Source: Naegleria gruberi (taxonomy: Eukaryota). Taken from it: DNA of 64,000 nt. A program made the position numbers and the translations under genes. Of the stretch, positions 1 to 51,743 are shown piece by piece. The notes beneath the pieces were generated by a model. It was given only the letters and a program-made list of their open reading frames with translations. It made no database searches and was not told the origin of the DNA. Where the stretch lies: the NCBI GenBank assembly GCA_000004985.1, contig GG738858.1; one strand, written 5' to 3'. The stretch's first letter is position 1. Each line of letters starts with the position of its first letter.

Positions 1-2564
1 CCAGTAGTGGTATATCTTTGATGGAGTTGTATTTTTACCAAATAAATTTTTCAATTTGTGAACTTGGTTCTTTGTTGAAGATTCAGTGGCAGTACCACCA
101 GTAGTTTCATTCTCCATAGATGTAATTTCATCACTGATATCACACATTTCATCTGATATTTGTTTAGATCTAAAATCCAAGCGCAAATCTACAACAAAAA
201 CTGTAATCACACAGGCCATGAGTGAAATCATTATCAGGAAATGAGATATGGACCCTGCTAATGAGTACTGTCTGGCATCAAATACCTCTGTGGCTCTAAG
301 AATGACTAACAATACAAAGTAAAGAGCAATAATAACACCAATAATAGCCAATAATCCAAATAGAAAGGCATTACTCTTGAGCGTATGGATCCATTTCCTT
401 CCAATACTTCCCTTGTTCTTGGAATCAACAAATGTCATCCACTCATAATAGTATCTGTAAAACATGTATCTGAGACACACGAACAGATAGCAGCAAACAG
501 AAATAGATACTAAACTGGATGTGACAACCACTTGGATATTGTTAACTATTGAAGTAGGGCTACTGCTTGAGGGACCTTGTGGTGGACTAGATCCCAATTT
601 GGCGCCATTCGATGCAATTGTAAAGGCCAACCAAATGAATAAACTTGCAAGGCCAATGTAAGGGAAGAATTGTCTACTCTTTACGGGTTGCTTGTTTCTG
701 AAAATTATTAATCCAACCACTACAGCACAAATACTAATCAAAAATAAGGATGATATTACAATTTTGACAATCATTAATCCACTATCAATTGCTGAAATCT
801 TTTTCAAATTAGTATCAGGGCTAACTAGTTGTGAAATAGGAATATACTCCAGGAAGGCAGAGAAGCTAGTAGTATGGTCACAACGACATTGTACTTGATA
901 ATTTCCCAATACAACTGCACTGCATCCGTAATTGTCCCAAACCTTTGTGACAGTGTTCCAATATCTACAACTAACGTTCTTTGAGTATAGACTTTCATTG
1001 AAGCCTGCTAAGCTTATAGTATCCACATTTTGTGTGTTGAAAACAAACTCGAGAGCATTTGGCAATCCGCTCAGAGGCACATAGTTTCCACCAATGAATG
1101 TTTTAAAACTCATCACGTTACTTATGGAAGTAATGTTTGGATTGGTATTATTTTCAGTTGAAAACCATACACCAATATTATAATTAATAACACCAAATGA
1201 AACATCATTTCCAATATTTTTTACAGAGTCTGGTATGGATATAGAAACTCCAGAGGTGAAGCTTGTTTGATTGGTAACTATTACTTCAAATAATTCAAGA
1301 GCAACCCTAACCAATTTTCTATCAGACCTTATCAGGGAGAGAGTGGATACAGCTTCCATAAGTGTGGTTTGAATATTTGATTCATGTCTGTTGGAATCTG
1401 ATATGACTGGAACTGACAACAAGTTCGAGGAAATATTAAAGCAATCATTCAATACACCTTCTACAAAGAAGGATTCATTGAAAATATTGGCTTTCACTTC
1501 ATCTAGTAATGTAGCAGTCAGATTTGAAACACCGGCTCCTACAAGGAGAGATAGTTCTTCATCAGTTGAATTCCTATTTTCATAAGAACTAATCAAATAA
1601 ATTGTAGAAACATCCTTTGCCTCGAATATAGATTTGATTGATCTATTTGATGCTTCTTTAACAATATTCTTAATTTCAGTCTTGTTCTTCTTTCCCATAT
1701 TTTCTGTAATATCTTTCAAATTACGAGTTGACAAATGTTTCAAATCAGAAACACTCAAACTATTCAAATCAAGTACCATAAAATCAAATTTTGCATTGAA
1801 TAATTTCGTATAATTATACTTTGTTTCAAATACTGTGGCATTCACAAAGTAATCACCAAGTTCAAAAGTGGCAGCTCCAACACTCCAAGTAGAAATATTC
1901 GATTCCAATCTCTCTGCAATCAATCCGCTACTATTATACAATCCAAAACGAAATATTAAATCAGAAAACTTGTCCTGAGCCAATTTGCTCACATCCACCC
2001 ATGCATCCAAGTTTGTTTGTTTCAACAATAAGACAGAACTATCCACTTGCAAATTAAACCATGATCTATTAATTGTTGTCGAAGGATTAACATCACAATT
2101 TAATCCAACATACGGACTCTGACAATCACACACATCTTGCGAACTACATACACCATTCCCTGAGCAAACAGTTGGCACGTTATATCCCTTTCCAAAGCAA
2201 GTATACGAAGGTTTAGCTGGTGTTTCCTCCCTTTCCAAATTTTCAAACGGAACCAGCTTTCTATTATTCTTGTTATTATTACTATCATTATTTATCAATA
2301 TTAAATTATTCTTCTCTTCATCGATCAATCCAATATTTAACGATGATCGTTGCCTTTCGCTACATGTTGTCCTCCGATGCAACAATGATGATGAAGAAAA
2401 TTACAGTGCTCGTTTTTGTGGTTAATTTTTTGGAGGGAAATTAAATTTGGTGCGTTGAAGATTATTTGTTGTTGATTCTGCTGCTGATAGGATGTTGTTA
2501 GCAAAGTATCAAAGACGAGGAGCAAGAGAAGGATTGTGTTCAACAAGATTGTTGTGATGCTCAT
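1..2564 (-). CDS. 5'-partial paralog of the EGF/GPS/7TM receptor at 37180. It has a signal-peptide exon (about 2397-2564), at least one short intron near 2340-2400, then a long open frame running off the window at position 1
   Basis: The minus-strand ORF 2337..2564 starts MSITTILLNTILLLLLVFDTLL, a signal peptide. The downstream frame reads ...PAKPSYTCFGKGYNVPTVCSGNGVCSSQDVCDCQSPYVGLNCD (one EGF-like repeat). It continues to CRYWNTVTKVWDNYGCS...CRCDHTTSFSAF (GPS-like motif, same pattern as CKYWDESSQLWSSKGCSF...CSCVHTTMFTTF in the 37180 gene), then several hydrophobic helices and a cytoplasmic tail that is still open at base 1. The exact splice site was not resolved; the frame shifts by +1 between the signal exon and the body. 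Confidence 0.55.
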
Positions 2565-20646: not shown

Positions 20647-20851
20647 TTACATACCTTACGAAATCTCACCTTAATTCACCTTAATAACAAATCTCACTCA
20701 ATTCTGGCTAATTTGTATTTATTCAAAGGTATTTATGTTTTTAAAAGCTCCATGAACTTGGCTGGAAATTCAATTAAATGTGGAAACTTCTCTATTTGTT
20801 TCAGATGTGCATTTTCGAAAATGCATCTTTTTTTTCAAATATGAATCACAA

Positions 20852-22308: not shown

Positions 22309-23649
22309 ATGAAGGAAATAATAACAATTCATGTCGGAGGGGCCGGATGTCAAATAGGCGATCAGTTGTGGGAGTTATATTGTAAGGAACACGGTATACA
22401 ACGTGCTGCAGATCATCATACCAATAATACAACCTCCATGATGGAATCATCAGCTGCCTTTTCATCAGCAGAGAGTTTGTTCTATGAAACGAGTCATACA
22501 GAAAAGCAACAATATGTTCCATTGGCTATCTTTTTCGATAACGACTCATCAAGAGTGCACGAATCGAGGAAGAGATTTGGTAACTTAATGTCCTCAGACA
22601 ATATGATTGGAGGTAAGGAAGATGCTGCCAATAATTTTGTGAGAGGATGCTACACGATTGGAAAGGAGAATATGGATACAGTCTTGGAGAGGATTAGAAT
22701 ATTGAGTGAGAAGTGTGATAGTTTGCAGGGAATTAATGTTGTGAACTCGTTGGGAGGAGGAACAGGCTCTGGATCAGGAACATTATTGCTTGATAGAATG
22801 AGTATAGACTTTGCAAAGGTTCCAATTCATTTGAATACTGTTGCACCATCTCCAAAATTGTATGATACAGTTGTGGAACCATATAATTTTTGTTGGGCTA
22901 TGGAACCAATGTGTGAAAAGGGATGCACAGCAACTTTTTATGATAATGAGGCCTTGTACAATGTTTGTGGAAATCATTTGGGAATTAATGATCCGAAATT
23001 AGCTGATATTAATCAAATTATTGCACACCACATTTCCACAAGCTTTTCCAGTTGTAGAATTGGATCTAATTGTGCAATGCCTGTTTCATTTGGAGATGTA
23101 AATCAGACACTTGTTCCAATTCCAAACTTTGAATTACTTACCCCTTCATTTGTACCATTTGGTTCTGCTCAGAACGAGTTGAGTATGGCAGAGAGGGGCA
23201 AACTTGCATTTAGTCCTTCCAACACTTTGATTTCTTACAACATCTTGGAAGGAAAAATGCTGAGCTCACTGTTAAGTTATAGAGGAAATGTAACTATGGG
23301 AGATAACTTTGAATGTTTGAGTGCTGTCAAAAAGATGGAGGGTATTTCTATGGGCCCTTCTTGGATTCCAAATACTTTCAGTTGCCACATCTCCAAAGCT
23401 CCAACAACTCTTTTGGATGATTCAGTTCTTGGGGTTGTGCCAAGTGAAAAGATGCTTGCAGTAACAACCAACACAACTGCCATCACCAAAAAATTGAATC
23501 AAATTATGGTAAACTTTGATAAAATGTATGAAAAGAGAGCATTTGTTCATTGGTATGTTGGAGAGGGCATAGAAGATGAATATTTTAGATATGGAAGATC
23601 TATACTCGAAGAAAAGGTTGCCACCTATGGAGAGTTGATTTCACAATAA
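22309..23649 (+). CDS. highly divergent alpha-tubulin-like protein
   Basis: First ATG at 22309. [30 protein letters not shown] corresponds to the alpha-tubulin N-terminus (MREVISIHVGQAGIQ..WELYCLEHGI). It carries the tubulin signature GGGTGSG and a C-terminus [27 protein letters not shown] (compare alpha [24 protein letters not shown]). The middle region is very diverged, with insertions. Confidence 0.7.
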   Translation: [446 protein letters not shown]

Positions 23650-33791: not shown

Positions 33792-36773
33792 ATGGGTTCA
33801 AGTGTTTCGGATTCTAGAAATGACAAGAGTGCACTTCAAAAAGCGTATCAAGAAGAAGCAAATGATGAAGAGGACGATGGTTCTGATCAATACCCTATTG
33901 ATGAATTATCTAAAACTGCAGTTGATCAACAACAACTGGAAGGTGGCCGAAACCTGTCGAATTATTTTTCTGAATTTGAAATTGTTTCTTCACAAAAATT
34001 CAAAAACAAAAAGCAGTACACTTTTCGATATAGGATTATTCAGAAAAGTGATCAGATTGGGTGTCTAGGAAGTGCATTCAAGTGTACAGAAAGCATTGTT
34101 GGATTTTCACCAAATCGAGAACGAGTTGTGATTGTGAAAAAATTAAAATATTTACCAGATTTACATCATTCGATGGATTTGATTGGAAACATGTTGGAAG
34201 AAAGTTTGGAAATGCATTATTGGCATATGGGGAGAGTTTTAAATTGTTTCAAAATTGAGAATAATAATGCGCAGGATTGGTTTTTAGTGTCAGAATATTA
34301 TCCTTTGGGAAATTTGACAGATTTGAGAAAGTCAATGAGTGAAGTTTCGATTTCTTTAATGTTACAACTTGTTTATCAAGCAGTAATGGCTATTAGATAT
34401 TTAAATTCCAGAAATTTGGTTCATAGAAATATCAAAATGGAAAATATTCATGTCAGATATTTTACAAATGACAGATTGACAATTATTTTGGGAGATTTAG
34501 GAACGTTATGTCAATTGAATGGAGATTCTATGGAAATTCCGCTCACCAGTGTTTCAACCTTTGAAGATTCTGACAAACTCATAGACAATTCCATAATAGG
34601 AACTTTAGGATATCGAGATCCTTTATCCATTAACAAACGAAGAATTCACATCAAATCTGACATTTGGAGTTTGGGAATAACCTTACTGAAATTCCTATTC
34701 TTTACAGATCTCCCAGCAACTGTCAATTTGGAAGAAGATTCTCAAGAAAATATTGAAGAATTATTGGATTATTTATTTTCTCCATTGGAAATCAAAGATC
34801 ATGCTTGGGCTTCTGTAAAACAGTTGATTTCTGGCATGTTGAGGATTAATATTTATGAAAGATATGGAACGAATAGAATTTTGACTGATATTTTTGATAT
34901 TGAACAAGTTTCGAATGTCGAAAATTTGGATTCGAATTACTTTTTACTGAAACAAGTATTCAAGAATCATGAATCAGTAATTTCGACTCTTTTATCTCAA
35001 AATGGAATGATGCTACCACACATGCCAGATTCTATTCGAAGGAATAAGAAATTTGTAATGATTGCAATTCAGAACAATCCATTTTCATACGAATTCATAT
35101 CTGAAACCTTAAAGAATGATTCTGAAATAATGATCAGCACTTATTTGAAAGATAGCAGAACAAAATACTTATTTACAAGGAAATTTACTGAACAGGAGGA
35201 GAAACAATTAAAGATTCGAGCAATTCCACTTGAAAGAAACTTATCTGAAAGTGAACGAAACGATTTTACTTTCATTTCGAATCTAGTTACCAAGGATGGA
35301 AGATATTTGGCACTGGCATCACCAAAACTGAGAAGCAACTTTGAAATTGTCAAGAAAAGTCTACTTTCGAATGGTTTAGCCCTCGAATTTGTTTCCCCAG
35401 AATTGAGAAAGGTCAAGGAATTTATGGAAATTGCAATTGACCAAAATCCACTTTCTCTTGCCTTTGTTGATTATTCATACAAGAATAGCTTTGAGATTGT
35501 CAAGAAGGCAGTTCAGCAAAATGGACTAGCTCTGGAATTTGCATCAAATCAACTCAAGCTTAATAAGGAAATTGTCAAAATTGCTGTCAGTCAAAATTGT
35601 AAGAGTTTGGCATTTGTTCCAAGTGCTCTGATTAGCAATGATCCAGAATTATTATGTTCTCTCCTTTCTTATGATTCAGATTCTATAGAAGAATATGAAA
35701 AACATTGGATTGCGACATTTGACATTTTCAATTGGATTATTTCACAATTCAGAAACAATACCAAATCGACATTCTTCAAAAATTCAAACCTCCTAACAAT
35801 GTATTGCATCTTGGAAGAGAACGACCTCATCCAAGTTGATCCTAAAATTCTATTCGAAATGTATGTCGAATCTTCCAACAAGAAACAAATTTATTCACTT
35901 TACAAAATGGGAATTTTATATTTCCATGGAGAAGATTTAATGGGAATTGAGAGGAATTTGGAAATGGCAGTTCAATATTTTGAACAAGCAGCTCAACTGG
36001 GATTAATTGATGCCTACATGTCACTTTATTCAATATATTCGAGTGATGACCAAGATGTCAAAAAGGCAGTTCAGTATTTGACAAGTGCTGCAACGAAGGG
36101 AAATGCTCAAGCTCAATGGAATCTTTGCGAATTGTATGCAAAGGGAGAGGGCGTTCCAAAAAGTAGTGAACTGTCAATGAAATGGATGAAAAAATCAGCT
36201 CAGAATGGAAATGTTGAAGCACAGCTGTCACTTGCCAATTATTATGAACAGGATGCCACTAAGGATGTTATACTAAGCTTTGAGTGGTGTCTGTTAGCTG
36301 CTGATCAAGGATTTCCCGAAGCACAATTTCAGTTAGGTGAAAAACTAATGAATGGAATTGGATGTCAACAAAATGTGTCACTTGCCATTCAACATTTTGA
36401 AAAAGCAGTTAAAGAAGGACATGTCCTCTCAATGCTCAATCTCGGTCTCATTTATTTCCAATCATCAACTTTACAAAATCATGAAAAATCTTTAAAATTC
36501 CTTTTACTAGCTGCCGAAAATGGAAATATCGATGCTCAACACAATATTGGATACTTTTTCGCATCTAAGAATGAATTTGAGAAGGCCTTTACATGGTACA
36601 TGAAATCTCATCTTGCCAATCATCCAAATTCATTCTCTGAAATTTCACAAATGATTTTACGAAATGAATTGAAATTCAAAAAAGTTTCTGGATTTATTGC
36701 CAAGGAAGCAATGAATGGAAATGAACAAGCAATTAAATTATTGCAAGAATTGAAAGAAAGAGGTGAGGAATGA
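33792..36773 (+). CDS. protein-kinase-like domain + C-terminal Sel1/TPR-like repeat array. A probable pseudokinase, with an N-terminal MGSS myristoylation-type start
   Basis: The kinase fold appears at residues ~70-370: VVIVKKL, LVHRNIKMENIHV (HRN instead of HRD), ILGDLGTL (GDLG instead of DFG), IWSLGITLL. The C-terminus has about 8 Sel1-like repeats, for example GNAQAQWNLCELYAKGEGVPKSSELSMKWMKKSAQNGNVEAQLSLANYY. Confidence 0.7.
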   Translation: MGSSVSDSRNDKSALQKAYQEEANDEEDDGSDQYPIDELSKTAVDQQQLEGGRNLSNYFSEFEIVSSQKFKNKKQYTFRYRIIQKSDQIGCLGSAFKCTESIVGFSPNRERVVIVKKLKYLPDLHHSMDLIGNMLEESLEMHYWHMGRVLNCFKIENNNAQDWFLVSEYYPLGNLTDLRKSMSEVSISLMLQLVYQAVMAIRYLNSRNLVHRNIKMENIHVRYFTNDRLTIILGDLGTLCQLNGDSMEIPLTSVSTFEDSDKLIDNSIIGTLGYRDPLSINKRRIHIKSDIWSLGITLLKFLFFTDLPATVNLEEDSQENIEELLDYLFSPLEIKDHAWASVKQLISGMLRINIYERYGTNRILTDIFDIEQVSNVENLDSNYFLLKQVFKNHESVISTLLSQNGMMLPHMPDSIRRNKKFVMIAIQNNPFSYEFISETLKNDSEIMISTYLKDSRTKYLFTRKFTEQEEKQLKIRAIPLERNLSESERNDFTFISNLVTKDGRYLALASPKLRSNFEIVKKSLLSNGLALEFVSPELRKVKEFMEIAIDQNPLSLAFVDYSYKNSFEIVKKAVQQNGLALEFASNQLKLNKEIVKIAVSQNCKSLAFVPSALISNDPELLCSLLSYDSDSIEEYEKHWIATFDIFNWIISQFRNNTKSTFFKNSNLLTMYCILEENDLIQVDPKILFEMYVESSNKKQIYSLYKMGILYFHGEDLMGIERNLEMAVQYFEQAAQLGLIDAYMSLYSIYSSDDQDVKKAVQYLTSAATKGNAQAQWNLCELYAKGEGVPKSSELSMKWMKKSAQNGNVEAQLSLANYYEQDATKDVILSFEWCLLAADQGFPEAQFQLGEKLMNGIGCQQNVSLAIQHFEKAVKEGHVLSMLNLGLIYFQSSTLQNHEKSLKFLLLAAENGNIDAQHNIGYFFASKNEFEKAFTWYMKSHLANHPNSFSEISQMILRNELKFKKVSGFIAKEAMNGNEQAIKLLQELKERGEE

Positions 36774-37179: not shown

Positions 37180-40100
37180 ATGACTCGATTATTACTCACG
37201 ACAGTTGTCATTTGTATTTCAATTTTGTTAGCCCTGACAGGATATATCAGTGCCGCGGTTACATGCAATGGTGTAGATCAGACAGATCCTTCAACCTGCA
37301 GTGGTCATGGTCTATGTAAAAGCAACAATAATTGCGCATGTCTTGACATGTCACCTGCCAATACATTAATTTCACAAACTGGAGGATACAATGGCATTCC
37401 AACAACATTAAATACCTCACGAACGCTAACTTCATCAAATGGTCAATATCAAGCATCATTAGATCCATCAACAGGTCGTTTACAAGTCCAAGATGTCACC
37501 AACTCGACCATCGTTTATCAAAGTGCAACTTTATTATCAGCAGCTTTATTTGCACCTTTTGAATTAAGATTATTTGTACCTTCATCTACTACCTGTCAAA
37601 TATCAATTTATGGAAATAATGTATTAGGTTTGACATTGACAGGTACAGTAAGTGCAATTTTGCCATGCAGATTGGTCATGAGAAATAATGGAGAATTAGT
37701 AATGTACAGTTCCGCTGGGTTTGTTTGGTGGACAACAAATCCATCACTGTCAACTGGCACTGAAGATTTAATTTATCAAGGTGTCAATTGCGCTTCACCA
37801 ACTTGTTATGGAATTTTGGCAGAATCTCCAAATGTTTGTTCTGGAAATGGAACTTGCACCTTTACTAATTCATGTTCTTGTAAAAGTGGACATTTCGGAG
37901 ATTTATGTGATGCTTTTAAATGTTTTGGAAATTTGGCAAATGACACGTTGAATGTTTGTTCAGGAAATGGAAATTGCATTTCTCCAAATGTTTGTTCGTG
38001 TAATTCTGGATTTTATGGACCTAATTGTGATTTAATCAAGTGTTTTGATGTGCTCAGTAATGAAACATCGAGTGTTTGTTCTGGACATGGAATTTGTTCG
38101 AGTACTGACAATTGCACTTGTGCAAACGGTTATTTGGGGAGTAAATGTAATCAGTTCGAGTGCTTTGGAATTTCAAATTCAGTAACTTCAGGACTCCAAT
38201 TGCCATGCTCTGGAAATGGAACATGTACTGGAATAGATCAGTGTGTATGTCAATCTGGATTTATTGGAAATGAATGTGAAACATTTAAATGTTCTAATTT
38301 TCTCAAGAATGACACTTTGAATGTTTGCTCTGGTAATGGATCATGTATTGCTCCTAATCAGTGTTCATGTCAATCTGGATTTTTCGGTTCGACATGTGAA
38401 GCTTTCAAATGTGGAAATGCATTATTCAATTCGAGTTCAGTATGTTCTGGAAATGGATTTTGTAATGCTCCAGATCAGTGCATTTGTAAGAATGGTTATT
38501 CTGGATCATTGTGTGATAAATTCACTTGCTTTGGAATTGCCAATGATTTAACAAGTGGTGGTCCATTAGCAGTTTGTTCTGGAAATGGAACATGTTCTGC
38601 GTTGGACAAGTGCATTTGTAATTCTGGATTTTTGGGTGACAGCTGTGACACTTTCAAATGTTTTAACAAGTTGAAGAATGATAGTTTGGTTTGTTCTGGT
38701 AAGGGAAGTTGCATTCTTCCAGAAACTTGTTCATGTTCGTTGGGATATGAAGGATTGAATTGTGACGGTTTCAAATGTTTTAACAAATTGAAAAATGATA
38801 GTTCAGTATGTTCAGGAAATGGATTATGTACTGATATTAATCAATGCTCGTGTAAGAATAATTGGTTAGGTCTTGATTGTTCTGTCACTTCTTGCTTTAA
38901 TTTACTGTCAAATGACACAACTGTTTGTTCTTCGAAAGGAAGTTGCGTTGGATTTAATCAATGCTCATGTCAATCTGGATATTTTGGTAGTCTATGTGAT
39001 GTTAAGAAATGCTTCTCCTACCTGTCAAATGAAACTTCACTTGTCTGTAATGGACAAGGAACATGTACTGATCTTGACACTTGTTCCTGTAACTCTGGAT
39101 TCCTTTCGAATGACTGTAGTGTCAATACGAATCCATTTTCCATTTCTTTGAACGTTTCTTCACTTTCCATTTATCAAGCTACTTCTTGGAATAGTGTGAA
39201 AATTTCCCTGTCAGAAGTTTTAAATGTCAATTTAATTAATTTCAATTGGTATTGCTTGGATTGTGTCACCAGGACAAGTTCTAATCTCCAGAAGGGACTT
39301 GTGAGTTCTTCACAAATTTTACAATTTAGAACTTCAGATTTAGTGGCAGGAACTTTTACATTTATTGCAAATGCAACATTTTCGAATATTTCACCATATC
39401 CAAAACGGGTTTCGAATAGTGTTTCATTTAAATTGACTGTATTGGATATTAATGTTCCTACTTTGGATGTTTTTGGACTTCCTTCAGTAATTATTTCAAA
39501 AATTGATCAACCAATTTCTAGTATAGTTTCTAGCATGACTTTAAATCAAACTTTGATTCAAAGTTTTATTGGAAAGTGTTCGAATGTTAGCTGTTCAACG
39601 CAGGTCACTTATTCTTGGACTATTTCATCTGCCGATAATACATTCAAGGCATCTTCTGATGGAATTACTAATATTCTCAACTTGGTTGATTCTACTATTA
39701 CAATTTCACCTCCAATTCAATTGACCACAAATTTATTGTCACTACTCAATAGTACTTTGACATTTTCTTTGAGTATTGTCAATCCATTACTGAAATCATT
39801 AACTTCATTGATCCAAATCCCAATTGTCTCTCCAGCTTTACCACCAACAGTTAATATTCCTGGATGGACAAGTGACGTTTACGGAGCTAACACGACCATT
39901 TCAAATGTCATGAGAGTTAGCCCAAGTCAAGGTATTTCACTCACTAATTTATTCACTATAACTATTGAATCATGGAGTGCTGATTCTAGACTCCTTCCTC
40001 TCAAGTATGCTGTTGGATTTTATGATAAAAAGACGAGTAAGCCAATTAGAGTAACTGAATATTCGAATCAAACCGAAATTTCAATTTATTTACCTTATAT

Positions 40101-42939
40101 GAAGTCATCTAGTTCAAAGAGATCTATTACTGCTGATTTGGAGAGTGTTGAATTGGTTGTGTTTATTATGGATGTGATTGGAAATATCGATTTCAGAAAG
40201 TCAGCAACTGTCTACCTGTCACCTTTTAGTGGAACAGCTACTCAATTGACAGAAAAGATTAATTCATTGACAGGATATGCAATTACTGTTGCCTCCTATG
40301 ATCAATCCTTGTCATTATTGAGTAGTACAGTTAGTGATTTAACTCTCAGTCTGATTAAGAACATTACAATTGATCCAAAATTCCCAACAGCTGCTCTTAA
40401 TAGTTTACAATCTTTGACAGCTGATGTCAATTCATTGACAAGAGAAATTGTTATTGAGGTGAATAGCAAATTGAATGGATTTATTACATCTGTGAATGGC
40501 AGCTATGCTGATGATAAGAAGAATTACGGATTTGTCAAGAGCAAACTAGCAAATTCTGATGTGACTTTGACAGTTTCTGTCAGTTCTAATTTATTGCAAA
40601 GTGTATTCGAAAGTGAAGGTACCAAGAATGTTGTCAATCAATTGGTTTCTACTATTTTATTTGGAGAAATCGCTAACATGATTCAATCAAGTCAAAAAAC
40701 ACTTAGTTCAGTTTCGTATAGTTCCAATCTAATTGACTTTGCAGTTTCCAGCTTTATATTGTCCAATCAAGTGAAATCGAATCAAACTCAATCTATCCTT
40801 ATGGGTAACTACACCAGTGTCTCTATGAATATTTCAAATATCATGAGTCAATATAATGCATTCTCAAAAGATTGTGGAATTTCTCTAATTGTCTATTCCA
40901 AGAATACTAACTTTGACAATTCTACTAACAAATTGAAACTTGTTTCAAGTGTTAACGATTTCAAGTTCAGCGTTGATTCATCTGTTGTGCCTCTCTCAGA
41001 TTTGACTCAACCAATTATTCTTCAATTTGAGCTTGTGGACGAATTGACTACAATTTTAGAATCTTTGAAAAATGAAACTCTGAATGTAACTCAAAATGAT
41101 CCAACTCAATCCCTCTCAACCAATGAACAAAAGTATTTGTGTAAATATTGGGACGAATCAAGTCAATTGTGGAGTTCTAAAGGATGTTCCTTCAAGAGTG
41201 TGAATTTACAATCCAAAACAATTGAATGTTCATGTGTTCACACAACCATGTTTACAACATTCATTGAACAGAACAGTACATTTATCAGTAATCTTAAAGA
41301 TCAAGTATCAGCTCTCTATTCAGTCCAAATAGCTTTTGGCATCATCTATGCAAGTGTTGCTACTGTAATTTTAATTGGATTAATTGCATTCAGAAAGGAA
41401 CAACCAGTTTCCTCCAGATTAATGACTCCATATTTTGGAATGGTTGCCTTGATCGCAGAAAGTGTTTTGATTTACATTATTCAGAGAAGTATTTTGGCTG
41501 ATCAATTGTTGAATTCTTCACCATCTGTATGGGAAACTGGTGATACAGCTGCTAATATTATTGCCAATGTAGTTGCTATCGTTGTCAATACTTTGAATTT
41601 GACAGCTATTTTGAGCTATGTCATTCAAGTGACAAGATTCCAATTAATGAAATACTTGTATCAAATCTTGTCTTCCAGTAGAGGAAATGAACAAAAGAGT
41701 GAACATACAATTAATGTTATCAGATTTTTGACAGCTCCAAGTTTGTCAAATTCAATTCTTTCAGCATTTGCTGGTGTGAATGTAATTTATTGGTTATTGT
41801 GGGTAATTTTGAGAAGAACCAATGCAATTGAACCAGCCACCTATACTTACATTGTTTCCATTTCGTATACAGTGTGCATTCTTGTATTCAGTGTCTTGAT
41901 TACTATTGTGGCTGTTTTAGATTTTATTGGCTCTACAAAGAAACATTTGGACATGAATACAAAGAGAAGAACAGCTATGGATCACTTAGTTGAGAATCCA
42001 AGCTCTAGTTTCAAGAAGGATAAGAAGAAATTCGTTGGAAATCCAGCCAAAATTTTCAGAGATTGGCTTATTACATTGGACGGTCCTCTCTACTTTAGAA
42101 TGGAAATGATCTTGTACATTATTTGCTTTATTTTCTTAGTTTTGAATCAAGGTATTGGATTGAGTAGTTTACCATACAGATATGAAAGTGTTGATTCATT
42201 TAGAAAAGCTCTCCTTTCTGATGGAATTTCGTTTATCTTTGAAGTTTTATATGTAGTGAGCTATATTTTCGTATTTGGTGGATATGCACTGATTATCACA
42301 CTCAAATACAAGTATCAAAAGTGGAAATATCAACAAGCACTCAAGGCAGCAGCTACAGAACCTCAAAATGAGGAAATTTGGATTGATGAGGCAGTTGATG
42401 AAATTCTCTCATCCCAAGAAGGAACAAGTCTATTCGAAACTTTTTGTGTCAAGGAATTCTCATGTGAAAATCTCTATCTCTATCAAGATTTACATGCCAA
42501 TAAGGAAATTATTGATGGAAACAATTTCAAGGACCTTCCAAGATTCATGTCCTTTGTTTTCCACAACTATGTCAAAGTGGGAGCTCCATCAGAAGTCAAC
42601 CTACCTTCCAGTAGTAGAAACTCATTCCTATTCCTCTTCAGATCAGCACTCTCTCAAAAAGAAACCTTCTCCTCCAGCCAACAAATTAAATTGGATTCGA
42701 ATCTGTTGCGAGATTTCGAAGCAGTAGAAAAGGAAATTCACACCGAAAATATTCCAATTGTCGAGTTGAATGCAACAAATATTAAGGATTGCTTTGAAAA
42801 TTTGGATAGAAATGTTTTGATTAATATTGGAGATACCTTCTCTCGATTTGTTTACACTCCGGAATATAAGATTTTTAAAAAGGCAAAGGAATTGCAAAAT
42901 GCAATGATTCAAAAGGCAAATATTGTGTATGGATTGTAA
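37180..42939 (+). CDS. giant receptor: signal peptide, ~15 EGF-like repeats, long S/T-rich extracellular stalk, GPS-like motif, 7TM domain, and C-terminal RGS domain
   Basis: ATG 37180 with signal peptide MTRLLLTTVVICISILLALTGYISA. The EGF-like repeats have the pattern CSGNG.C....C.C..G..G..C (about 37830-39125). The GPS-like motif CKYWDESSQLWSSKGCSF...CSCVHTTMFTTF lies immediately before the first TM helix. Seven hydrophobic helices follow. The RGS-box sequence FETFCVKEFSCENLYLYQDL...FHNYVKVGAPSEVNL is at the C-terminus. Single exon, 1919 aa. Confidence 0.75.
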   Translation: MTRLLLTTVVICISILLALTGYISAAVTCNGVDQTDPSTCSGHGLCKSNNNCACLDMSPANTLISQTGGYNGIPTTLNTSRTLTSSNGQYQASLDPSTGRLQVQDVTNSTIVYQSATLLSAALFAPFELRLFVPSSTTCQISIYGNNVLGLTLTGTVSAILPCRLVMRNNGELVMYSSAGFVWWTTNPSLSTGTEDLIYQGVNCASPTCYGILAESPNVCSGNGTCTFTNSCSCKSGHFGDLCDAFKCFGNLANDTLNVCSGNGNCISPNVCSCNSGFYGPNCDLIKCFDVLSNETSSVCSGHGICSSTDNCTCANGYLGSKCNQFECFGISNSVTSGLQLPCSGNGTCTGIDQCVCQSGFIGNECETFKCSNFLKNDTLNVCSGNGSCIAPNQCSCQSGFFGSTCEAFKCGNALFNSSSVCSGNGFCNAPDQCICKNGYSGSLCDKFTCFGIANDLTSGGPLAVCSGNGTCSALDKCICNSGFLGDSCDTFKCFNKLKNDSLVCSGKGSCILPETCSCSLGYEGLNCDGFKCFNKLKNDSSVCSGNGLCTDINQCSCKNNWLGLDCSVTSCFNLLSNDTTVCSSKGSCVGFNQCSCQSGYFGSLCDVKKCFSYLSNETSLVCNGQGTCTDLDTCSCNSGFLSNDCSVNTNPFSISLNVSSLSIYQATSWNSVKISLSEVLNVNLINFNWYCLDCVTRTSSNLQKGLVSSSQILQFRTSDLVAGTFTFIANATFSNISPYPKRVSNSVSFKLTVLDINVPTLDVFGLPSVIISKIDQPISSIVSSMTLNQTLIQSFIGKCSNVSCSTQVTYSWTISSADNTFKASSDGITNILNLVDSTITISPPIQLTTNLLSLLNSTLTFSLSIVNPLLKSLTSLIQIPIVSPALPPTVNIPGWTSDVYGANTTISNVMRVSPSQGISLTNLFTITIESWSADSRLLPLKYAVGFYDKKTSKPIRVTEYSNQTEISIYLPYMKSSSSKRSITADLESVELVVFIMDVIGNIDFRKSATVYLSPFSGTATQLTEKINSLTGYAITVASYDQSLSLLSSTVSDLTLSLIKNITIDPKFPTAALNSLQSLTADVNSLTREIVIEVNSKLNGFITSVNGSYADDKKNYGFVKSKLANSDVTLTVSVSSNLLQSVFESEGTKNVVNQLVSTILFGEIANMIQSSQKTLSSVSYSSNLIDFAVSSFILSNQVKSNQTQSILMGNYTSVSMNISNIMSQYNAFSKDCGISLIVYSKNTNFDNSTNKLKLVSSVNDFKFSVDSSVVPLSDLTQPIILQFELVDELTTILESLKNETLNVTQNDPTQSLSTNEQKYLCKYWDESSQLWSSKGCSFKSVNLQSKTIECSCVHTTMFTTFIEQNSTFISNLKDQVSALYSVQIAFGIIYASVATVILIGLIAFRKEQPVSSRLMTPYFGMVALIAESVLIYIIQRSILADQLLNSSPSVWETGDTAANIIANVVAIVVNTLNLTAILSYVIQVTRFQLMKYLYQILSSSRGNEQKSEHTINVIRFLTAPSLSNSILSAFAGVNVIYWLLWVILRRTNAIEPATYTYIVSISYTVCILVFSVLITIVAVLDFIGSTKKHLDMNTKRRTAMDHLVENPSSSFKKDKKKFVGNPAKIFRDWLITLDGPLYFRMEMILYIICFIFLVLNQGIGLSSLPYRYESVDSFRKALLSDGISFIFEVLYVVSYIFVFGGYALIITLKYKYQKWKYQQALKAAATEPQNEEIWIDEAVDEILSSQEGTSLFETFCVKEFSCENLYLYQDLHANKEIIDGNNFKDLPRFMSFVFHNYVKVGAPSEVNLPSSSRNSFLFLFRSALSQKETFSSSQQIKLDSNLLRDFEAVEKEIHTENIPIVELNATNIKDCFENLDRNVLINIGDTFSRFVYTPEYKIFKKAKELQNAMIQKANIVYGL
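37830..39125 (+). repeat. tandem array of EGF-like coding repeats (~120 nt units) within the 37180 gene
   Basis: Repeated tgttctgg(a/t)aatgga...tg(t/c)...tgt...tctggattt...tgtga units, visible at both the nucleotide and protein level. Confidence 0.7.
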
Positions 42940-44832: not shown

Positions 44833-46311
44833 TTACAACACGAATGAAAGACAAATGAAAAGCAAAGCAAAGACAAATGGCAAGCTAGTGGTAATGAAAG
44901 TTGCTTCACTTGCATAGAAAACCAAAGAAACTGAAACAGCAACTTTAGGTGATGGTGAAGTCAAATTTCTACCAACAACTGGAAGTGTCAAGTTTGTAGG
45001 AATTTGAGGTTGACCAGTGACATCTAGACCAGAAAGAGTTGTCAATGCAGAAACGTCAGCCATTCCAGCATCAGTCCAAGCTTTCTTATAACACTTAATC
45101 ATATTAGCATATTGCTTTGAACACAACTTGGTAATGACAGTTGAATTGGCATCAACAGGTTGATATGAAATAGTTGATGTCATGCCACTTGTCAATTCAT
45201 CAACTCCATTATTATAGGCACAAGCATAAAAATCTTCTCTAAAACCATTACATGGTTGAACACAAGTTCCATTGAATGGACTAGCACTAGACAAACCACC
45301 ACATCCACATTTCAAATCAGATGAGCTAGGACATGCTTTGGCAGTTGAACATGTGACAACTGTCGATGAACATTTAAGATTTTCACAATAATTATTGAAA
45401 CAGTCATCATTCTTATCACATGCTTCACCATCAAGAAGATGCCATCTTCTAATACACTTATTCTTAGCACATCTCATTTGAAGAATTGGCAATTTGTAAC
45501 AATCTGAAGGAGTTTCACAAAATTCACCATAGACAGATGGCTTTTGACAGGTCTTGGCAGCACTATCAATATTTTCCTTTCTACAATACAATCCATCTGC
45601 ACAAACAGTTGAAACTGGAAGTCCAGAACAATTTTGACCTAATTGTAAAATTGTTGGTTTGTAACAAACGTTACTGATACAAGTCAACCCAGAATTTTCT
45701 TTACAAAAAACACGAACGCCACCTGAAATTGTTTCACAAGGACCTCCTTCATCGCTATTATATGCCATCTTGAGACAGGCGCCTTGATAACAGTAGAAAC
45801 CTGTTGCACAATCGTTTACAATATTTGTTGTTTCGTTCAATGATTTTTCCAAGCAGGCACCACCTTCAACATTGACAACTGGCAGGACTTTGAAACTGAC
45901 ACATTGATTATTAACACAATTAGTGTAAGCAGAAGCACTTCCAAAACTACCAACGCAATTTTCTCTATGAGTGCAATAATCACCTAAAATTCTAGTTCTA
46001 CGATATTCACAAGTTTGAGTTCTGGCAGCACAACCCAACCAATTGGCTTGACAAGCAGAAGAACTGCCTGCACAGGACATACCAACGTAATTTGGAAGGA
46101 TAGTATTAGGAATTGAAATACAGGTACGATTTCCTGTAAAACTGAAACCATTAATTGAACCAGTTGGGCAAACGAGTGAGGAAGCTTTTGATGAGGCAGC
46201 ATCAGCAGCTGTAATACCCGAGACATAGTTGGAGGTACATTGCTGGCCAACTACTGTGGATAGCATCAGATAGAGAGATGCTAATGTGAAGAGGAGAAGG
46301 TATGGTTTCAT
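44833..46311 (-). CDS. cysteine-rich secreted surface protein, probably GPI-anchored
   Basis: N-terminal signal peptide MKPYLLLFTLASLYLMLSTVVG. About 60 Cys residues in repeated C-x-n-C spacing. C-terminal S-rich stretch followed by a hydrophobic tail (FITTSLPFVFALLFICLSFVL), typical of a GPI signal. Confidence 0.5.
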   Translation of the reverse strand: MKPYLLLFTLASLYLMLSTVVGQQCTSNYVSGITAADAASSKASSLVCPTGSINGFSFTGNRTCISIPNTILPNYVGMSCAGSSSACQANWLGCAARTQTCEYRRTRILGDYCTHRENCVGSFGSASAYTNCVNNQCVSFKVLPVVNVEGGACLEKSLNETTNIVNDCATGFYCYQGACLKMAYNSDEGGPCETISGGVRVFCKENSGLTCISNVCYKPTILQLGQNCSGLPVSTVCADGLYCRKENIDSAAKTCQKPSVYGEFCETPSDCYKLPILQMRCAKNKCIRRWHLLDGEACDKNDDCFNNYCENLKCSSTVVTCSTAKACPSSSDLKCGCGGLSSASPFNGTCVQPCNGFREDFYACAYNNGVDELTSGMTSTISYQPVDANSTVITKLCSKQYANMIKCYKKAWTDAGMADVSALTTLSGLDVTGQPQIPTNLTLPVVGRNLTSPSPKVAVSVSLVFYASEATFITTSLPFVFALLFICLSFVL

Positions 46312-46695: not shown

Positions 46696-48324
46696 TTATT
46701 TTCTCTTTTTCTTTTGTTTAATTTCTTGTTTGAATTTCATAAATGGTTCTGCCATTGATTCGCAAACACTCTTTTGCAATTCATCAAACAAGTCGTCTTC
46801 TAAAATGCTAGAAGATGAGAATTCATCCAATCTTGTTTTAACTCGTTCTTGAAGAGCAGTGCTTGTTTTGAATGGTGTTTCTCCATTTACATCAATGAAT
46901 TCAGTAAATATCTTGAAAGCAACTTCGTATTTGTTTCTTTCCAATTCCTCAACTTTCTCAATTTCCTCAATATCGCTAATTTTCGTATTCTTGCTCTTTT
47001 GTTCAGCAACACCTCTCAAGTAGTGGGCTTCCTCACAGAGTTCCTTGTAAGAGTGGCAATTGTCCAACAAGGTAAATGAATCCAAACAATTTTCTCTATC
47101 ACAGAAAGCTCTGAATAAAGCATTATACTTATCACTTCCAACAGTTTCCATTATCATAATATGAGCAGCTTTTCGGAGTTTTCTTGTGCTTGTAACTTCA
47201 GTAGTCAATGCCATGGCAAAGATTAAAATAACTATTGGAACACTAACAATTACACCAAACAAAACTAAACCCATGTTCACAGCGCTTGCCATCCTTAAAT
47301 ACTCTTTCTTCTCATTTGCAAGTTTGACAATTTCTTTTTGTACTTTGATTAAGAAAAGTTGGGTTATAGTATCTGCTGAATAGTATTGGAATGATTTTCT
47401 TTTTTCCCTTGCAGATATCATGTCTCCAATAGCCACATAATCCATAACTAGATCATTCAAAGTAGTTATTTGCGTATTCAAATATTCGGATGGTTTCACA
47501 GTTCCATTAGGCAAAGTTAGTGCAAGCTCTACTAGGGTGGTATTGGCAAGGGCTCGCTTTATATAATATTCCCCAACCAGACTCTGGTTTCCAGTGGCTG
47601 CAGCTACTCTTACAGTACAGTCAATATCGTGATAGAGTTGCAAGTAGTCTGTTCTCTTGAGGAGCATATAGGTTTCCTTCTGGGCATCCAATTTGAAAGC
47701 ATTTCCAACAATTACAGCCACAGCTATAAAAGCAGCAATATTGATAAGCATACCAAACAGTGAGAGAATTCTGACAAGATTCAGTTCTATTATACCACAA
47801 CATGTAGGAATACGAAATGTCACCGAAGAGACGGTAGACTTGCCCGACTTGGCTGTTGTCTTACTGAATATTGATTCAACTGTAGGTTTTTGTGGTTGAG
47901 CAAACGAGACTCTTTTATCACCTGGTGTTTGTGGAGTATTGTTTTGGGCTCTACTCATTCTATATTGTTGTTGTTGTGGTTTAATTGAAGATAAGGTTAA
48001 TGGTTTAGTGACAAATCTTCTAGCAAAGTGTACCACAATACTATCGGCATCACTACAGGCATCGTCATCTTCGTCGTCTTCATCCTCAATTTTAGTTTGT
48101 TCCTCATTGTGAGTATTGACAGTGATACAAACTTTCTCTTGAGCTTGTTCTTCGTCAATCTTTTTCAAATCCTTTAGTTCAATAGATGTTGAAGTAGAAG
48201 GATTGTCTTGATGATTCTGAATGGTTTCAATTGTTTGTGATGGGGGTGTTGAAGATGGATGATCACCTTCAGGCGACGAAGTAGAAGATAACGAAGAAGA
48301 CATTTTTTGTGTGTTGGTATTCAT
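46696..48324 (-). CDS. membrane protein (2 predicted TM helices) with a C-terminal RGS-like domain (paralog 1)
   Basis: S-rich N-terminus. TCCGIIELNLVRILSLFGMLINIAAFIAVAVIV is TM1 and MGLVLFGVIVSVPIVILIFAMAL is TM2. The C-terminal NALFRAFCDRENCLDSFTLL...EVAFKIFTEFIDVNGETPFKTSTALQERV resembles the RGS box (F..F...E...E.L.F...AxxIYxxFI...A...VN). Confidence 0.5.
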   Translation of the reverse strand: MNTNTQKMSSSLSSTSSPEGDHPSSTPPSQTIETIQNHQDNPSTSTSIELKDLKKIDEEQAQEKVCITVNTHNEEQTKIEDEDDEDDDACSDADSIVVHFARRFVTKPLTLSSIKPQQQQYRMSRAQNNTPQTPGDKRVSFAQPQKPTVESIFSKTTAKSGKSTVSSVTFRIPTCCGIIELNLVRILSLFGMLINIAAFIAVAVIVGNAFKLDAQKETYMLLKRTDYLQLYHDIDCTVRVAAATGNQSLVGEYYIKRALANTTLVELALTLPNGTVKPSEYLNTQITTLNDLVMDYVAIGDMISAREKRKSFQYYSADTITQLFLIKVQKEIVKLANEKKEYLRMASAVNMGLVLFGVIVSVPIVILIFAMALTTEVTSTRKLRKAAHIMIMETVGSDKYNALFRAFCDRENCLDSFTLLDNCHSYKELCEEAHYLRGVAEQKSKNTKISDIEEIEKVEELERNKYEVAFKIFTEFIDVNGETPFKTSTALQERVKTRLDEFSSSSILEDDLFDELQKSVCESMAEPFMKFKQEIKQKKKRK

Positions 48325-48837: not shown

Positions 48838-51507
48838 TTAAAAGAAGAAGAAAATGATCATCATTGCAATCACCAAGTATGAGGCAGTGAAGTTGTGAAT
48901 GGATGAGGTATGACTAAGGACAGGTTCTGGAGGAATTTCAACAGAGGAAACTTGCAAATTATATCCACTAATTAAGAGAGCAAAGTTTTGAGAACCAACA
49001 TTCTTCTCCGATGATCTGATATTAATAATAATCGATGAGGATGAATTGGAGGTGTTTGGAGGAATGTTAATGGTGAGTGATTCGACATTGTTTCTATCAT
49101 CAATTAGGGAGGAATCTTGAATGTTTCCATAGTTACATTGTTGATTACCGTAGCAGAGAGTATGAATTGGTGAGGAGGAGGAATCATCCTTGATGGAAAC
49201 TGAGAGATCTAAATTGTTGATTAGCACTTTGGCTGAGTTGGTGGATGAGCTAACAGGTGTACCTTTCAAATCAAACCAGGTGAGTGTAACTTTCAATGGA
49301 TTGGAGCTTGCCAAATTATTGGTCAACTTCATTGTGATGGTAATGTTTGAGGCAACATTGATTTTCTGTCTATTGATTGTGAATAGATCTGGATTGGAAT
49401 CCTTATCTGAAAACTTCATTGTATTGGCAATATTCACTCTACCGTAACCTGTGTACTTGTTTGGAGTTTTCTCTTTGGATAGATCACGATAATTGTTTTC
49501 GTTTGTGAAAACACCATCCAACTTGACTGTACCCATCAACTTCTCTCCAGAGTGAATAACAAAACCCTTTACAAGCATGCCACTCAATGTTTGATTTGGA
49601 TTCTTATTAATCAAATCAAGGTTGACCAATCTTTGCTTGCTATTTTGAAGGAAGTATTCTCTAACCAGAGCAGAAACACCTGAGATAGCTGGACAGGCCA
49701 TACTAGTTCCTGTCTTCTGAGTTAGCCCAGTTGAATCACAGAATGGAATATAACTTCTAGCACTCCAAATTTTCACTCCAGGAGCTACAATGTCAGGCTT
49801 AAATCTATTATCAAATGTTGGACCTCTTGCTGAAAAATAGCCCAAATTGTCATGATTGTAAAGTGTTGTATTGATATTTGGTTCATATCTGGTGTATTCA
49901 TCAGATGTGGCATAGGCAGCACCAACTGAGATACAATTCTTGGCAGTAGATGGAGCTAGTTCAAAAATTGTTACAATTTACCAAGTGAACAATATACTTA
50001 CAAATAACAGACTTTTCCTGTCCATAGTAACCACTATTACCAGCAGCAAAGACAACTAACATTTCATCATTGGCATTGGTGAATTCATCAATTTGTGCAG
50101 AGAGTGTTTCATAAGTGTTACCAAGTTCACAACATCTTAAACCATATTGTTGAAGACAATACTCATCCTTCACTGGTTTGGAAAGATTGGATTTGGCTTC
50201 ATAGCAATCACAATCAAATTGGCAATCTAAATTATTGGTATTTCCCCAACTGTTGCTGGAAATTCTTGCACCACTGGCATAAGCCCTAATCAAGTAAGAT
50301 GTCATGTTGGAAACTGAGAAGAAAAGTGTAATACCAGAATCAATCATGTGAATTTTAGCATCTTTGGCAATACCCATATCATTATCAATTCCTGAAGTTG
50401 AACTTGGTTGACCAGCAACTATTATTAAGGTAAAATAACAAAGAATGAAAACAACAACTTACTAATTCCAGAACAGTGAGTACCATGACCATTGGCATCG
50501 TAAAAATCTCCTGTTGTACCTCTCTCGTAAAGTACAACCTTTCTATTTTTGGTATTCAAAGTAGAATAATCTTCATTTGGAGAAGAGAAGAAACAATGAC
50601 TGTAATCAAGACCTGAATCAACAATATTCACAATCTCACCCTTTCCAGTTACACCATTATCCCAAGCAAATCTCGAAACATTAACCTTACGATTGTATTG
50701 AACAACATTATTGGAGCCGTACAATAATAATGATTGAGAAAATTCTCTTTCAACATAGTCTACATCTTCATTATCTAAAATGTTGCTCATTAAGAAATCT
50801 GACATGTGACTCATCAAGGCACTCCTTTTACCATTGTTATTCCACAAGCTTGCATCTCCATCAACCAAGGAAATTGAAAACATTCTTCCTCTTTCTTCAA
50901 TCAAAATTGAAGAACTTGCAAGAATTTCATTAATACTCTCAGAACTTCTTCTCACAGAACTTTCAATCAATTGAGTAGCAAACTCATGATTGAATTTGGT
51001 ATTCATCTTGGAAAGGAAGAGTGGCAATTTTTCTTCAAATTCACTATTCATTACAACTCTGAGTTTGGAAAATCTCAAACTGTCCATAGAAAATTGAGGA
51101 AACAAAATTCTCTTCTCATTGCTAACTCTTTCAATTCTGTAAATGTATTGTCTGTAGGAGGATTCGCTTTTAATTTCATCAATTCTTTGTAATGAGAGTC
51201 TAGTTCTAAACACTCTGTTATCTGTTCCACTGACAGTTTCTAATCTTTCGGTACGAATGTTGCTGCTACTTGGACCGAAAACAATTCTATTTAATTGGTC
51301 TAAATGAAAATCGGAAAGGATGACATTATCATGAATTTTAATGTCTACAAGAAGTTTTGCATTATTCGAAAGTGTTCTTGCAGCTGATGATGATGGTTTA
51401 TCCAACAAATTTAAACCATCCAATGTATGAGGAAATCTGCTATGAGCAACAACTGAGAATGCCAAACCGAGGAGGAATAGGCATACCACCAATATTGTTC
51501 GCTGCAT
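48838..51507 (-). CDS. subtilisin-like serine protease (S8), 3 exons: 50463..51507, 50002..50418, 48838..49955
   Basis: Signal peptide MQRTILVVCLFLLGLAFSVVA from ATG 51507. The pro-domain is followed by DSGLDYSHCFF (Asp) and HGTHCSGI (His). The first donor is A|GTAAGT at 50462, giving a 44-nt intron, and the acceptor restores IAGQPSST. The second donor is T|GTAAGT at 50001, giving a 46-nt intron. Exon 3 carries GTSMACPAISGVSAL (the Ser catalytic motif) and a C-terminal S-rich domain. Confidence 0.75.
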
Positions 51508-51743
51508 TATTTTTTTGTAAAGTATCGAATAATTGCATAGTAGACATGTCATTCAATAAGATTTATCACCAAGTTTAAATACCGAATCTATTGATGTTGG
51601 TCAAATTTCGAAAAGGAGATTAGATAACGTTCAAGGAGTAAGAAACTTAACAAAGAATGCAGATACCAATATAAAAATTATTCTAAACCTGAACCCGACA
51701 TTCCATACATGGAAGTTGACAAAAGAATGAAAGTGGCGATAAG

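Follow-up and report, generated by a model that had tools for sequence, protein, structure and literature searches.

A 64,000-nucleotide stretch of Naegleria gruberi DNA (contig GG738858.1 of assembly GCA_000004985.1; hereafter the window) carries at positions 37180 to 42939 a gene for D2V990, which is probably an adhesion-type receptor with a built-in GTPase-activating (GAP) domain as its output. D2V990 begins with a signal peptide and a bulb-lectin-like region of degenerate type, continues with 12 EGF units and a REJ-like stretch, then has a predicted GAIN domain that includes the GPS motif, and closes with a seven-helix bundle followed by an RGS domain. This is not a discovery, because the protein already has a public database entry and the design of its N. 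fowleri relatives came out in 2022; the architecture is known and the protein is annotated. New here are the GAIN fold in full, a tethered-peptide-like H-T↓T-x-F-x-x-F motif that is close to invariant (the arrow marks the predicted cleavage point), and the observation that the seven-transmembrane (7TM) domain is no closer to G-protein-coupled receptors (GPCRs) of the adhesion class than to other GPCR classes.

Domain organization of D2V990

The gene and its parts are listed below with nucleotide positions in the window and amino acid (aa) positions in the protein.

37180..42939, plus strand: whole single-exon open reading frame (ORF) of D2V990 (ORF listing, exact database match, open-frame chance)
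37180..37254, plus strand: signal peptide, aa 1-25, with a hydrophobic core at aa 9-27 (Kyte-Doolittle peak 2.42) and a presumed cleavage point
37255..37794, plus strand: N-terminal EGF-like half-unit and degenerate bulb-type-lectin-like region, aa 26-205 (similarity to paralog P0009)
37804..39117, plus strand: 11 tandem six-cysteine EGF-like units, aa 209-646 (Pfam EGF_2 and EGF_Teneurin, regular expression)
39118..40236, plus strand: Ser/Thr/Asn-rich, beta-rich spacer, aa 647-1019, with a partial REJ-like match (Pfam REJ at aa 911-977, nt 39910-40110)
40237..41271, plus strand: predicted GAIN domain, aa ~1020-1364 (helical subdomain A, ~1020-1162; beta-sandwich subdomain B, ~1178-1364)
41140..41265, plus strand: GPS motif, aa 1321-1362, C-K-Y-W..W..G-C..C-S-C-V-H-T-T-M-F-T-T-F (Pfam GPS, ADGRF1 alignment)
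41239..41247, plus strand: predicted autoproteolysis triad H1354-T1355↓T1356 of the canonical H-X-S/T type (aligned to H-L↓T of ADGRF1)
41245..41268, plus strand: tethered-peptide (Stachel)-like last GAIN beta-strand, T-M-F-T-T-F-I-E, aa 1356-1363 (strand in the AlphaFold2 model, family pattern)
41275..42351, plus strand: seven-helix transmembrane domain, aa ~1366-1724, with long intracellular loops (ICL) 2 and 3 (hydropathy, AlphaFold2 models)
42382..42915, plus strand: RGS domain, aa ~1735-1912, with a ~50-aa insertion between the EVNLP and DTFSRF motifs (Pfam, Foldseek, phmmer)

The ORF runs from ATG to stop without interruption (1919 aa plus the stop, 5757 nt). At the 34% GC of the window, the chance of 1919 codons without a stop is ~1e-63. 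From end to end, the translation has exactly the sequence of N. gruberi EFC46548.1 (XP_002679292.1; UniProt D2V990, NAEGRDRAFT_79129), which bears the automatic UniProt name 'GPS domain-containing protein'.

The GPS motif was recognized by Pfam with 27.6 bits (E 4.3e-6, cut-off 22.5) when aa 941-1373 were scanned alone; in the full-length Pfam scan this match was filtered out and not listed, and it was the sub-region scan that recovered it. The motif, C1321-K-Y-W...W...G-C1336...C1350-S-C1352-V-H1354-T-T-M-F, stops ~20-30 residues ahead of the first transmembrane (TM) helix, TM1. In phmmer, C-K-Y-W-D-E-S-S-Q-L-W-S-S-K-G-C...C-S-C-V-H-T-T-M-F-T-T-F-I of D2V990 aligns with C-V-F-W-D...W-N-D-A-G-C...C-Q-C-T-H-L-T-S-F-S-I-L-M of the ADGRF1 GPS. 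An AlphaFold2 (AF2) model of aa 980-1919, made from an 18-sequence alignment with a mean predicted local distance difference test score (pLDDT) of 75.5, contains a beta-sandwich preceded by a helical subdomain; the final strand of the sandwich, T-M-F-T-T-F-I-E (model residues 378-385; candidate peptide sequence TMFTTFIEQNSTF), leads directly into TM1. The top Foldseek match of this model was inactive CD97, aligned over both GAIN and 7TM (E 1.6e-9, 707 columns), and the next was the GAIN domain of BAI3 (3e-9). Because of this modelled fold and the CD97 and BAI3 matches, the GPS-like motif is best assigned to a genuine GAIN fold.

Efficient GAIN cleavage requires an aromatic residue at position S10.49 and the Gly of Gly-Cys, and the cleavage motif is H-X-S/T (PMC13062082). 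In D2V990, Y1323 would be the residue at S10.49. The sequence determinants of self-cleavage are present (H1354, T1356, Y1323 and G1335-C1336), and autoproteolysis is predicted from them. In the family proteins retrieved, 82 instances of the motif lying just before TM1 (C-x-C-x-H-x-T-x-F) were picked with a pattern that fixed the His and the Phe at +3 and allowed T, S or C at +1. Thr occupied -1 in 79 of the 82 and +1 in all of them, and Phe occupied +6 in 80, giving the family logo H, T, T, x, F, [SAT], [TAS], F, [ILV], [EQ], [YF]. The Phe at +3 was also an invariant column in A3, an independently built 23-sequence alignment. Upstream of the motif, among instances that fit a stricter pattern, Gly-Cys was found in 50/50 and the aromatic residue of C-x-Y/F in 49/50; the listed instances that fail this stricter pattern still keep both.

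Hydropathy analysis of D2V990 revealed seven hydrophobic segments behind the GAIN domain (1384-1402, 1416-1439, 1460-1478, 1526-1544, 1565-1583, 1643-1661 and 1689-1707), and the AF2 models place seven long helices at these segments in a GPCR-fold bundle. One of these models covers only the C-terminal fragment (CTF) beyond the predicted cleavage point, aa 1356-1730, with a pLDDT of 79.1 and a predicted template modelling score (pTM) of 0.77. No Pfam 7TM family, 7tm_2 included, matched the 7TM segment of D2V990 or 23 diverse relatives at E<=10, and a family profile searched against PDB sequences gave no GPCR match, only noise. The 7TM domain had no structural preference for class B2. Most invariant or near-invariant 7TM positions of the family lie on the cytoplasmic side. 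In D2V990 the conserved motifs of this face are QPxxSR (1408-1413, in ICL1 after TM1), R1486 and D1581 (where TM3 and TM5, respectively, end) and PLYFRxE (1636-1642, before TM6; family pattern PLxFRxE), and FGG (1699-1701) is conserved in TM7. The conserved cytoplasmic-side residues may form a conserved intracellular interface.

The RGS domain begins ~25 residues past TM7, and D2V990 ends ~7 aa after the RGS box, without a C-terminal tail. Pfam RGS matched aa 1739-1816 with 29.1 bits in the full-length protein (cut-off 23.9), and the C-terminal 199 aa scanned alone gave 36.3 bits (E 8e-9). Foldseek matched the domain to RGS8, RGS1 and RGS16 with target-normalised TM-scores (template modelling scores) of 0.6-0.77. 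In a phmmer alignment with RGS16 (E 1.8e-4), FSCENLYLY paired with FSEENLEFW, APSEVNLP with APKEVNID, and GDTFSRFV with KDSYPRFL. These three RGS16-type segments touch the switch regions of G-alpha in complexes of R4 RGS proteins with G-alpha. The residues of D2V990 equivalent to the contacts are E1763, N1764, N1807, D1885 and R1889, and these positions are kept in the consensus across paralogs. The RGS box of D2V990 thus keeps its G-alpha switch-contact residues, and GAP activity is predicted.

Of the 89 cysteines, 83 lie in the ectodomain, together with 31 N-glycosylation sequons, a concentration consistent with the predicted topology. Pfam EGF_2 matched 12 stretches, the N-terminal unit included (E 6.7e-48), and EGF_Teneurin matched with E 1.2e-40. 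A strict regular expression found nine units in the array, and two more, with longer first loops (~aa 328-366 and 450-489), were identified by eye. Ahead of the array, aa 26-205 share 31% identity (E 3e-13) with the N-terminus of the N. gruberi paralog P0009, a 'B-lectin domain-containing protein'. Because the Pfam scan gave no B_lectin match in the D2V990 N-terminus, it is this paralog similarity that suggests a lectin-like origin of the region, and its sugar-binding motifs of the QxDxNxVxY type look degenerate as read from the sequence. Behind the array, Pfam REJ (PF02010) scored 34.5 bits (cut-off 25) over profile positions 319-385 only (67/452). REJ matches are longer in the homologs P0001, P0007 and P0061, and the match in P0061 is near full-length (61.9 bits).

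The initial annotation of the window, made from its sequence, had described a single 1919-aa open frame with EGF repeats, a GPS-like Cys/Trp motif immediately before TM1, seven hydrophobic helices and a C-terminal RGS box, and all of these stood up to the analyses above. Of the profile searches that it had proposed, those for EGF, GPS and RGS succeeded and that for a known 7TM family did not; the structure prediction that it had also proposed places the GPS in a GAIN-like fold. As a side observation, ranks 4-7 of the Foldseek search with the aa 980-1919 model were chains of the axonemal doublet-microtubule 96-nm repeat (8j07_k3, 9fqr_Hn, 8glv_AE and 9y6s_9K; E 4e-6 to 2e-4).

The heterolobosean GPS-7TM-RGS family and a second copy in the window

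We searched for relatives by exhaustive phmmer with aa 1351-1740 of D2V990 against 1.84 billion cluster representatives. In all, 93 clusters matched at E<=1e-3, and 79 of them also at E<=1e-10. The best N. fowleri match to the 7TM core was CAG4715528.1 / FDP41_005437 (E 6.9e-123, 57% identity). The 7TM matches retrieved were all short fragments or proteins of the family type, which have an RGS match, the GPS end motif or both. All named matches were heterolobosean; the named members come from N. gruberi, N. fowleri, N. lovaniensis and Willaertia magna, and the remainder from environmental assemblies. An RGS match was found in 88 of the 97 family proteins retrieved, downstream of the 7TM domain wherever the match was complete. 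Word-indexed protein searches returned Naegleria proteins only, many of which combine GPS and RGS with an ectodomain of the EGF, REJ, NHL or lectin kind; a word-indexed search with the 7TM profile gave three matches, all already known, and hydrophobic words probably saturate its prefilter.

The ectodomains of the family differ, with EGF, REJ, RCC1-like, NHL and B-lectin types among them, and distant members retain Pfam GPS and RGS with the ectodomain swapped, for an RCC1-like propeller in Willaertia or for the full REJ of P0061. D2V990 has the 7TM-core homology, the RGS domain right after the seventh helix and C-S-C-V-H-T-T-M-F (aa 1350-1358) before TM1; judged by sequence, it is a member of this heterolobosean GPS-7TM-RGS family, which is that of the N. 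fowleri '7TM RGS' proteins.

A second member lies at the edge of the window.

1..2564, minus strand: distant paralog, 5' part in the window, with a signal-like start (ATG at 2564), one EGF unit, GAIN/GPS (C-R-C-D-H-T-T-S-F), TM1-TM5 and part of ICL3

The initial annotation had noted here a second copy with the same motif and the same 7TM arrangement. The GPS motif is there (Pfam GPS 35.8 bits), and of the 7TM arrangement only TM1-5 are visible, as five hydrophobic segments; the 3' part of the gene is cut off at the window edge, so that the window, at base 1, stops short of TM6-7 and the RGS domain. The gene is on the minus strand; a plus-strand reading was rejected, since all three plus frames are full of stops. 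The copy shares 25% identity with D2V990 in the 7TM domain and 31% around the GPS. It is 97.5% identical to P0055, a full-length protein of 1122 aa that has TM6-7 and an RGS domain at 962-1113. Its long open frame spans 1-2400 on the minus strand. Near 2397-2400 a T-run one base shorter than in P0055 breaks the frame and splits off the ATG-containing segment (2380-2564, minus strand), which begins MSITTILLNTILLLLLVFDTLL. The copy also has one Gln codon fewer than P0055 and differs from it by a 5-aa indel in ICL3. Possible causes of the frame break are a frameshift or pseudogene in this allele, a homopolymer error, and divergence between strains. A short GT..AG intron was tried as a bridge across it, and the candidate ran into a stop.

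Proposed mechanism, rival readings and known systems

Adhesion-GPCR knowledge leads us to propose that the GAIN domain of D2V990 would cleave itself at H1354-T1355↓T1356 and that the two fragments would remain associated. Force or ligand acting on the EGF/lectin/REJ ectodomain would shift or remove the N-terminal fragment, and the signal would pass from the GAIN domain to the helix bundle. The T-M-F-T-T-F-I strand would be exposed or repositioned, perhaps after cleavage, and, in a speculative step, strand and bundle might then change how readily the RGS box, or the cytoplasmic face of the bundle, reaches G-alpha. As the biochemistry of its relatives suggests, the membrane-held RGS box would speed GTP hydrolysis on Naegleria G-alpha, which would keep G-alpha off or sharpen its cycle.

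Several observations weigh against this reading. The RGS box holds the ~50-aa insertion, and Pfam aligns its first two-thirds only. The GPS has an unusual Thr at -1, where animal sites typically have Leu. The putative tethered peptide is not confidently placed in the CTF-only AF2 model (residues 1-13, pLDDT <50); an agonist function of the T-M-F-T-T-F-I-E strand is at most suggested, and its conservation could reflect a structural role in the core of the GAIN sandwich alone. The plant protein AtRGS1 has a switch of tail phosphorylation and endocytosis, which is not simply transferable because D2V990 has no tail past the RGS box.

A true class B2 adhesion GPCR, acting as an exchange factor through its tethered agonist, with the RGS domain acquired as a terminator and the GAIN-7TM unit homologous to that of animals by descent, seems unlikely to us, although it would account for the GAIN domain directly before TM1, as in all adhesion GPCRs, for CD97 as the top Foldseek match over GAIN and 7TM, for the likeness of the T-x-F-x-x-F-hydrophobic strand to the T-x-F-A-V-L-M agonist, and for the invariant Arg at the cytoplasmic end of TM3. 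Because the 7TM domain contains no detectable 7tm_2-type domain, D2V990 is not demonstrably of class B2; it is like an adhesion GPCR in layout, yet no demonstrable member of that family. Doubtful to a somewhat greater degree is an RGS-like domain that serves as a non-catalytic scaffold (compare GRKs, axin and RGS-RhoGEFs) and recruits partners without GAP activity. The large insertion and the Pfam match in the full-length scan, which covers profile positions 2-76 of 117 only, would fit such a scaffold, but the switch-contact residues (E1763/N1764, N1807, D1885...R1889) align with R4-type RGS and are kept in the paralog consensus, the nearest structural matches are catalytic R4/R7 RGS proteins, and relatives in N. 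fowleri have 7TM-RGS domains with GAP activity, which is sensitive to the G-to-S mutation in switch 1 (PMC9283941).

The REJ match beside the GAIN domain, and the near full-length REJ of P0061, could point to a receptor of the polycystin-1/REJ type, with a REJ plus GAIN ectodomain and with ion channels rather than G proteins as partners. We regard this as very improbable: D2V990 has seven TM segments, not eleven, and no Pfam PLAT or polycystin-channel match, and nearly all family members carry a G-protein-directed RGS box. Least credible, and close to negligible, is that the long ORF is an artefact in which an assembly error or a missed stop merged two genes. The ortholog region of N. lovaniensis is indeed annotated as two adjacent genes, C9374_004465 (EGF, REJ and GPS end) and C9374_004464 (7TM remnant and RGS); because the split falls within the conserved 7TM core, it is most likely an annotation break. 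The D2V990 frame is open for 5757 nt, and the order GPS, 7TM, RGS is repeated in dozens of proteins of N. gruberi, N. fowleri, N. lovaniensis, Willaertia and environmental assemblies. A fusion, which the initial annotation had named as a way to refute its proposal, is excluded because this colinear core recurs in ~90 clusters and at least four heterolobosean species.

The adhesion-type receptor with a GAP output, which we prefer, has close counterparts in published work. Bosch et al. (2022, J Biol Chem; PMC9283941) describe a set of 28 '7TM RGS' proteins in N. fowleri (Nf 7TM RGS1-4 plus 24 others); GPS motifs, EGF repeats and lectin domains occur in several of them. They found GAP activity in three of the RGS domains, those of Nf 7TM RGS2, 3 and 4. 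It was selective for Nf G-alpha2, 3, 5 and 7, showed the canonical dependence on switch 1, and went with transition-state binding. By sequence these proteins belong to the same family as D2V990 (57% in the 7TM core), and they share its layout of EGF/lectin-like modules, GPS, 7TM and C-terminal RGS. The initial annotation had called this combination unusual if confirmed; its novelty was overstated, since the EGF/lectin-GPS-7TM-RGS design is in that paper. In the passages searched, the GPS motifs are mentioned only as 'reminiscent of adhesion GPCRs', the word GAIN is absent, and no GAIN fold, REJ-like module, H-T↓T-x-F-x-x-F motif or 7TM class is described. In the searchable literature we found no GAIN-fold assignment, REJ module, conserved cleavage or tethered-peptide motif, or 7TM classification for Naegleria 7TM RGS proteins.

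With the animal and other holozoan adhesion GPCRs (ADGRG6, ADGRL3, BAI3, CD97 and ADGRF1), D2V990 shares a predicted GAIN domain of subdomains A and B, with the GPS in the last strands, right before TM1. Unlike them, it lacks a 7tm_2 signature and a HormR domain, has Thr at -1 in place of Leu, and carries a C-terminal RGS (GAP) domain. To our knowledge, no animal adhesion GPCR carries a C-terminal RGS domain.

AtRGS1 has a short N-terminus and is not known to carry GAIN/GPS or adhesion modules. AtRGS1 and the Trichomonas 7TM-RGS proteins resemble D2V990 in having seven TM segments with an RGS box close behind, which in D2V990 has contact residues of the catalytic type; D2V990 differs from them in lacking a C-terminal tail past the box. 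Both are proposed to act on self-activating G-alpha (PMC9283941; PMC3971589), and 7TM-RGS architectures occur in many bikonts (de Mendoza et al. 2014). The exhaustive single-sequence phmmer search, which is blind to remote kinship and included no direct comparison with AtRGS1, matched no 7TM core outside the heterolobosean-type family. Polycystin-1 and the sea-urchin REJ proteins, like D2V990, have a REJ module followed by GAIN/GPS beside the first TM helix (PMC3321182), the REJ of D2V990 being partial; from polycystin-1 D2V990 differs in its seven rather than eleven TM helices, in giving no PLAT/PKD_channel match in Pfam, and in its RGS output domain.

A 2025 eLife study (PMC12716839) placed the origin of the GAIN/7TM module in stem holozoans and concluded that only holozoans have it; Naegleria is not mentioned there. 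A complete predicted GAIN fold on a GPCR-fold bundle in a discoban, in ~90 clusters, conflicts with this restriction and is either an overlooked counter-example to it or a case of convergence. We tentatively suggest, as a possibility that we would not put at even odds, that a GAIN-7TM mechanosensory module exists outside Holozoa, assembled by heteroloboseans or inherited from a very early eukaryote, in which force strips the N-terminal fragment and an RGS GAP in the same molecule, instead of G-protein exchange activity or alongside it, comes under the control of the exposed T-x-F-x-x-F peptide; this would be an 'inverted' adhesion GPCR. If true, this would contradict the stem-holozoan origin of the GAIN/7TM linkage. 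The near-invariant cleavage determinants and the tethered-peptide-like strand predict a testable link between the activation logic of adhesion GPCRs and a receptor-GAP output. The N. fowleri relatives are candidate drug targets in an infection that is nearly always fatal.

Neighbouring genes in the window

The window is gene-dense and mostly intron-poor, as suits nuclear DNA of N. gruberi. The genes other than the two receptor genes are as follows.

10193-10420, plus strand: G-protein gamma (GGL), 75 aa (Pfam E 9.5e-15), within 64 kb of four RGS-domain genes
15791-16990, minus strand: full actin gene
19749-20477, minus strand: partial actin-like ORF (profile positions 2-266 of 410)
20780-22060, plus strand: T4 Rnl2-type RNA ligase (RNA_ligase and T4_Rnl2_C, E 2e-25)
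22294-23649, plus strand: divergent tubulin-family ORF, near both actin ORFs
28396-29991, plus strand: ORF strongly matching a Wntless-like transmembrane domain (E 6e-59)
33792-36773, plus strand: protein kinase with five DUF4116 repeats and Sel1 repeats, 993 aa, directly upstream of the D2V990 gene
44833-46311, minus strand: Cys-rich ORF, 491 aa, with a hydrophobic N-terminus (signal peptide) and C-terminal tail (glycosylphosphatidylinositol-anchor-like or TM end)
46696-48324, minus strand: membrane RGS gene with two TM segments (Pfam RGS 26.6 bits)
48838-49845 and 50425-51552, minus strand: C-terminal and N-terminal halves of a subtilase (Peptidase_S8) domain in adjacent ORFs
51744-53258, plus strand: membrane RGS-like gene with two TM segments (paralogy with 46696-48324, 32% identity, E 2e-51)

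Two further predictions of the initial annotation, a G-gamma gene at 10193-10420 and two membrane-RGS genes, proved correct, the latter with two TM segments each, not seven. RGS genes were sought by Pfam scans of all ORFs of at least 150 aa. The first of the pair was identified in this way, and the second, which had no Pfam RGS match in scans at E<=0.001 and E<=10, by paralogy only; a tblastn search of the window with the D2V990 RGS domain brought up no further RGS gene. With four RGS-domain genes among ~32 ORFs the window looks enriched, although a local duplication accounts for two of the four and Naegleria has very many RGS genes. For N. fowleri, 108 are reported (28 + 79 + 1; PMC9283941). 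Both members of the two-TM pair have a disordered N-terminus, a conserved T-C-C-G-I-I-x-L-N motif, two TM segments around a ~150-aa loop and a C-terminal RGS-like domain, and the pair flanks the subtilase gene in divergent orientation. The two subtilase ORFs are probably one gene broken by an intron or a frame break.

The Cys-rich ORF had no Pfam match. We know of no Wnt signalling in Naegleria, the genome of which here encodes a Wntless-like domain. The Rnl2-type ligase is a phage/kinetoplastid-like type of enzyme in the genome of an amoeboflagellate.

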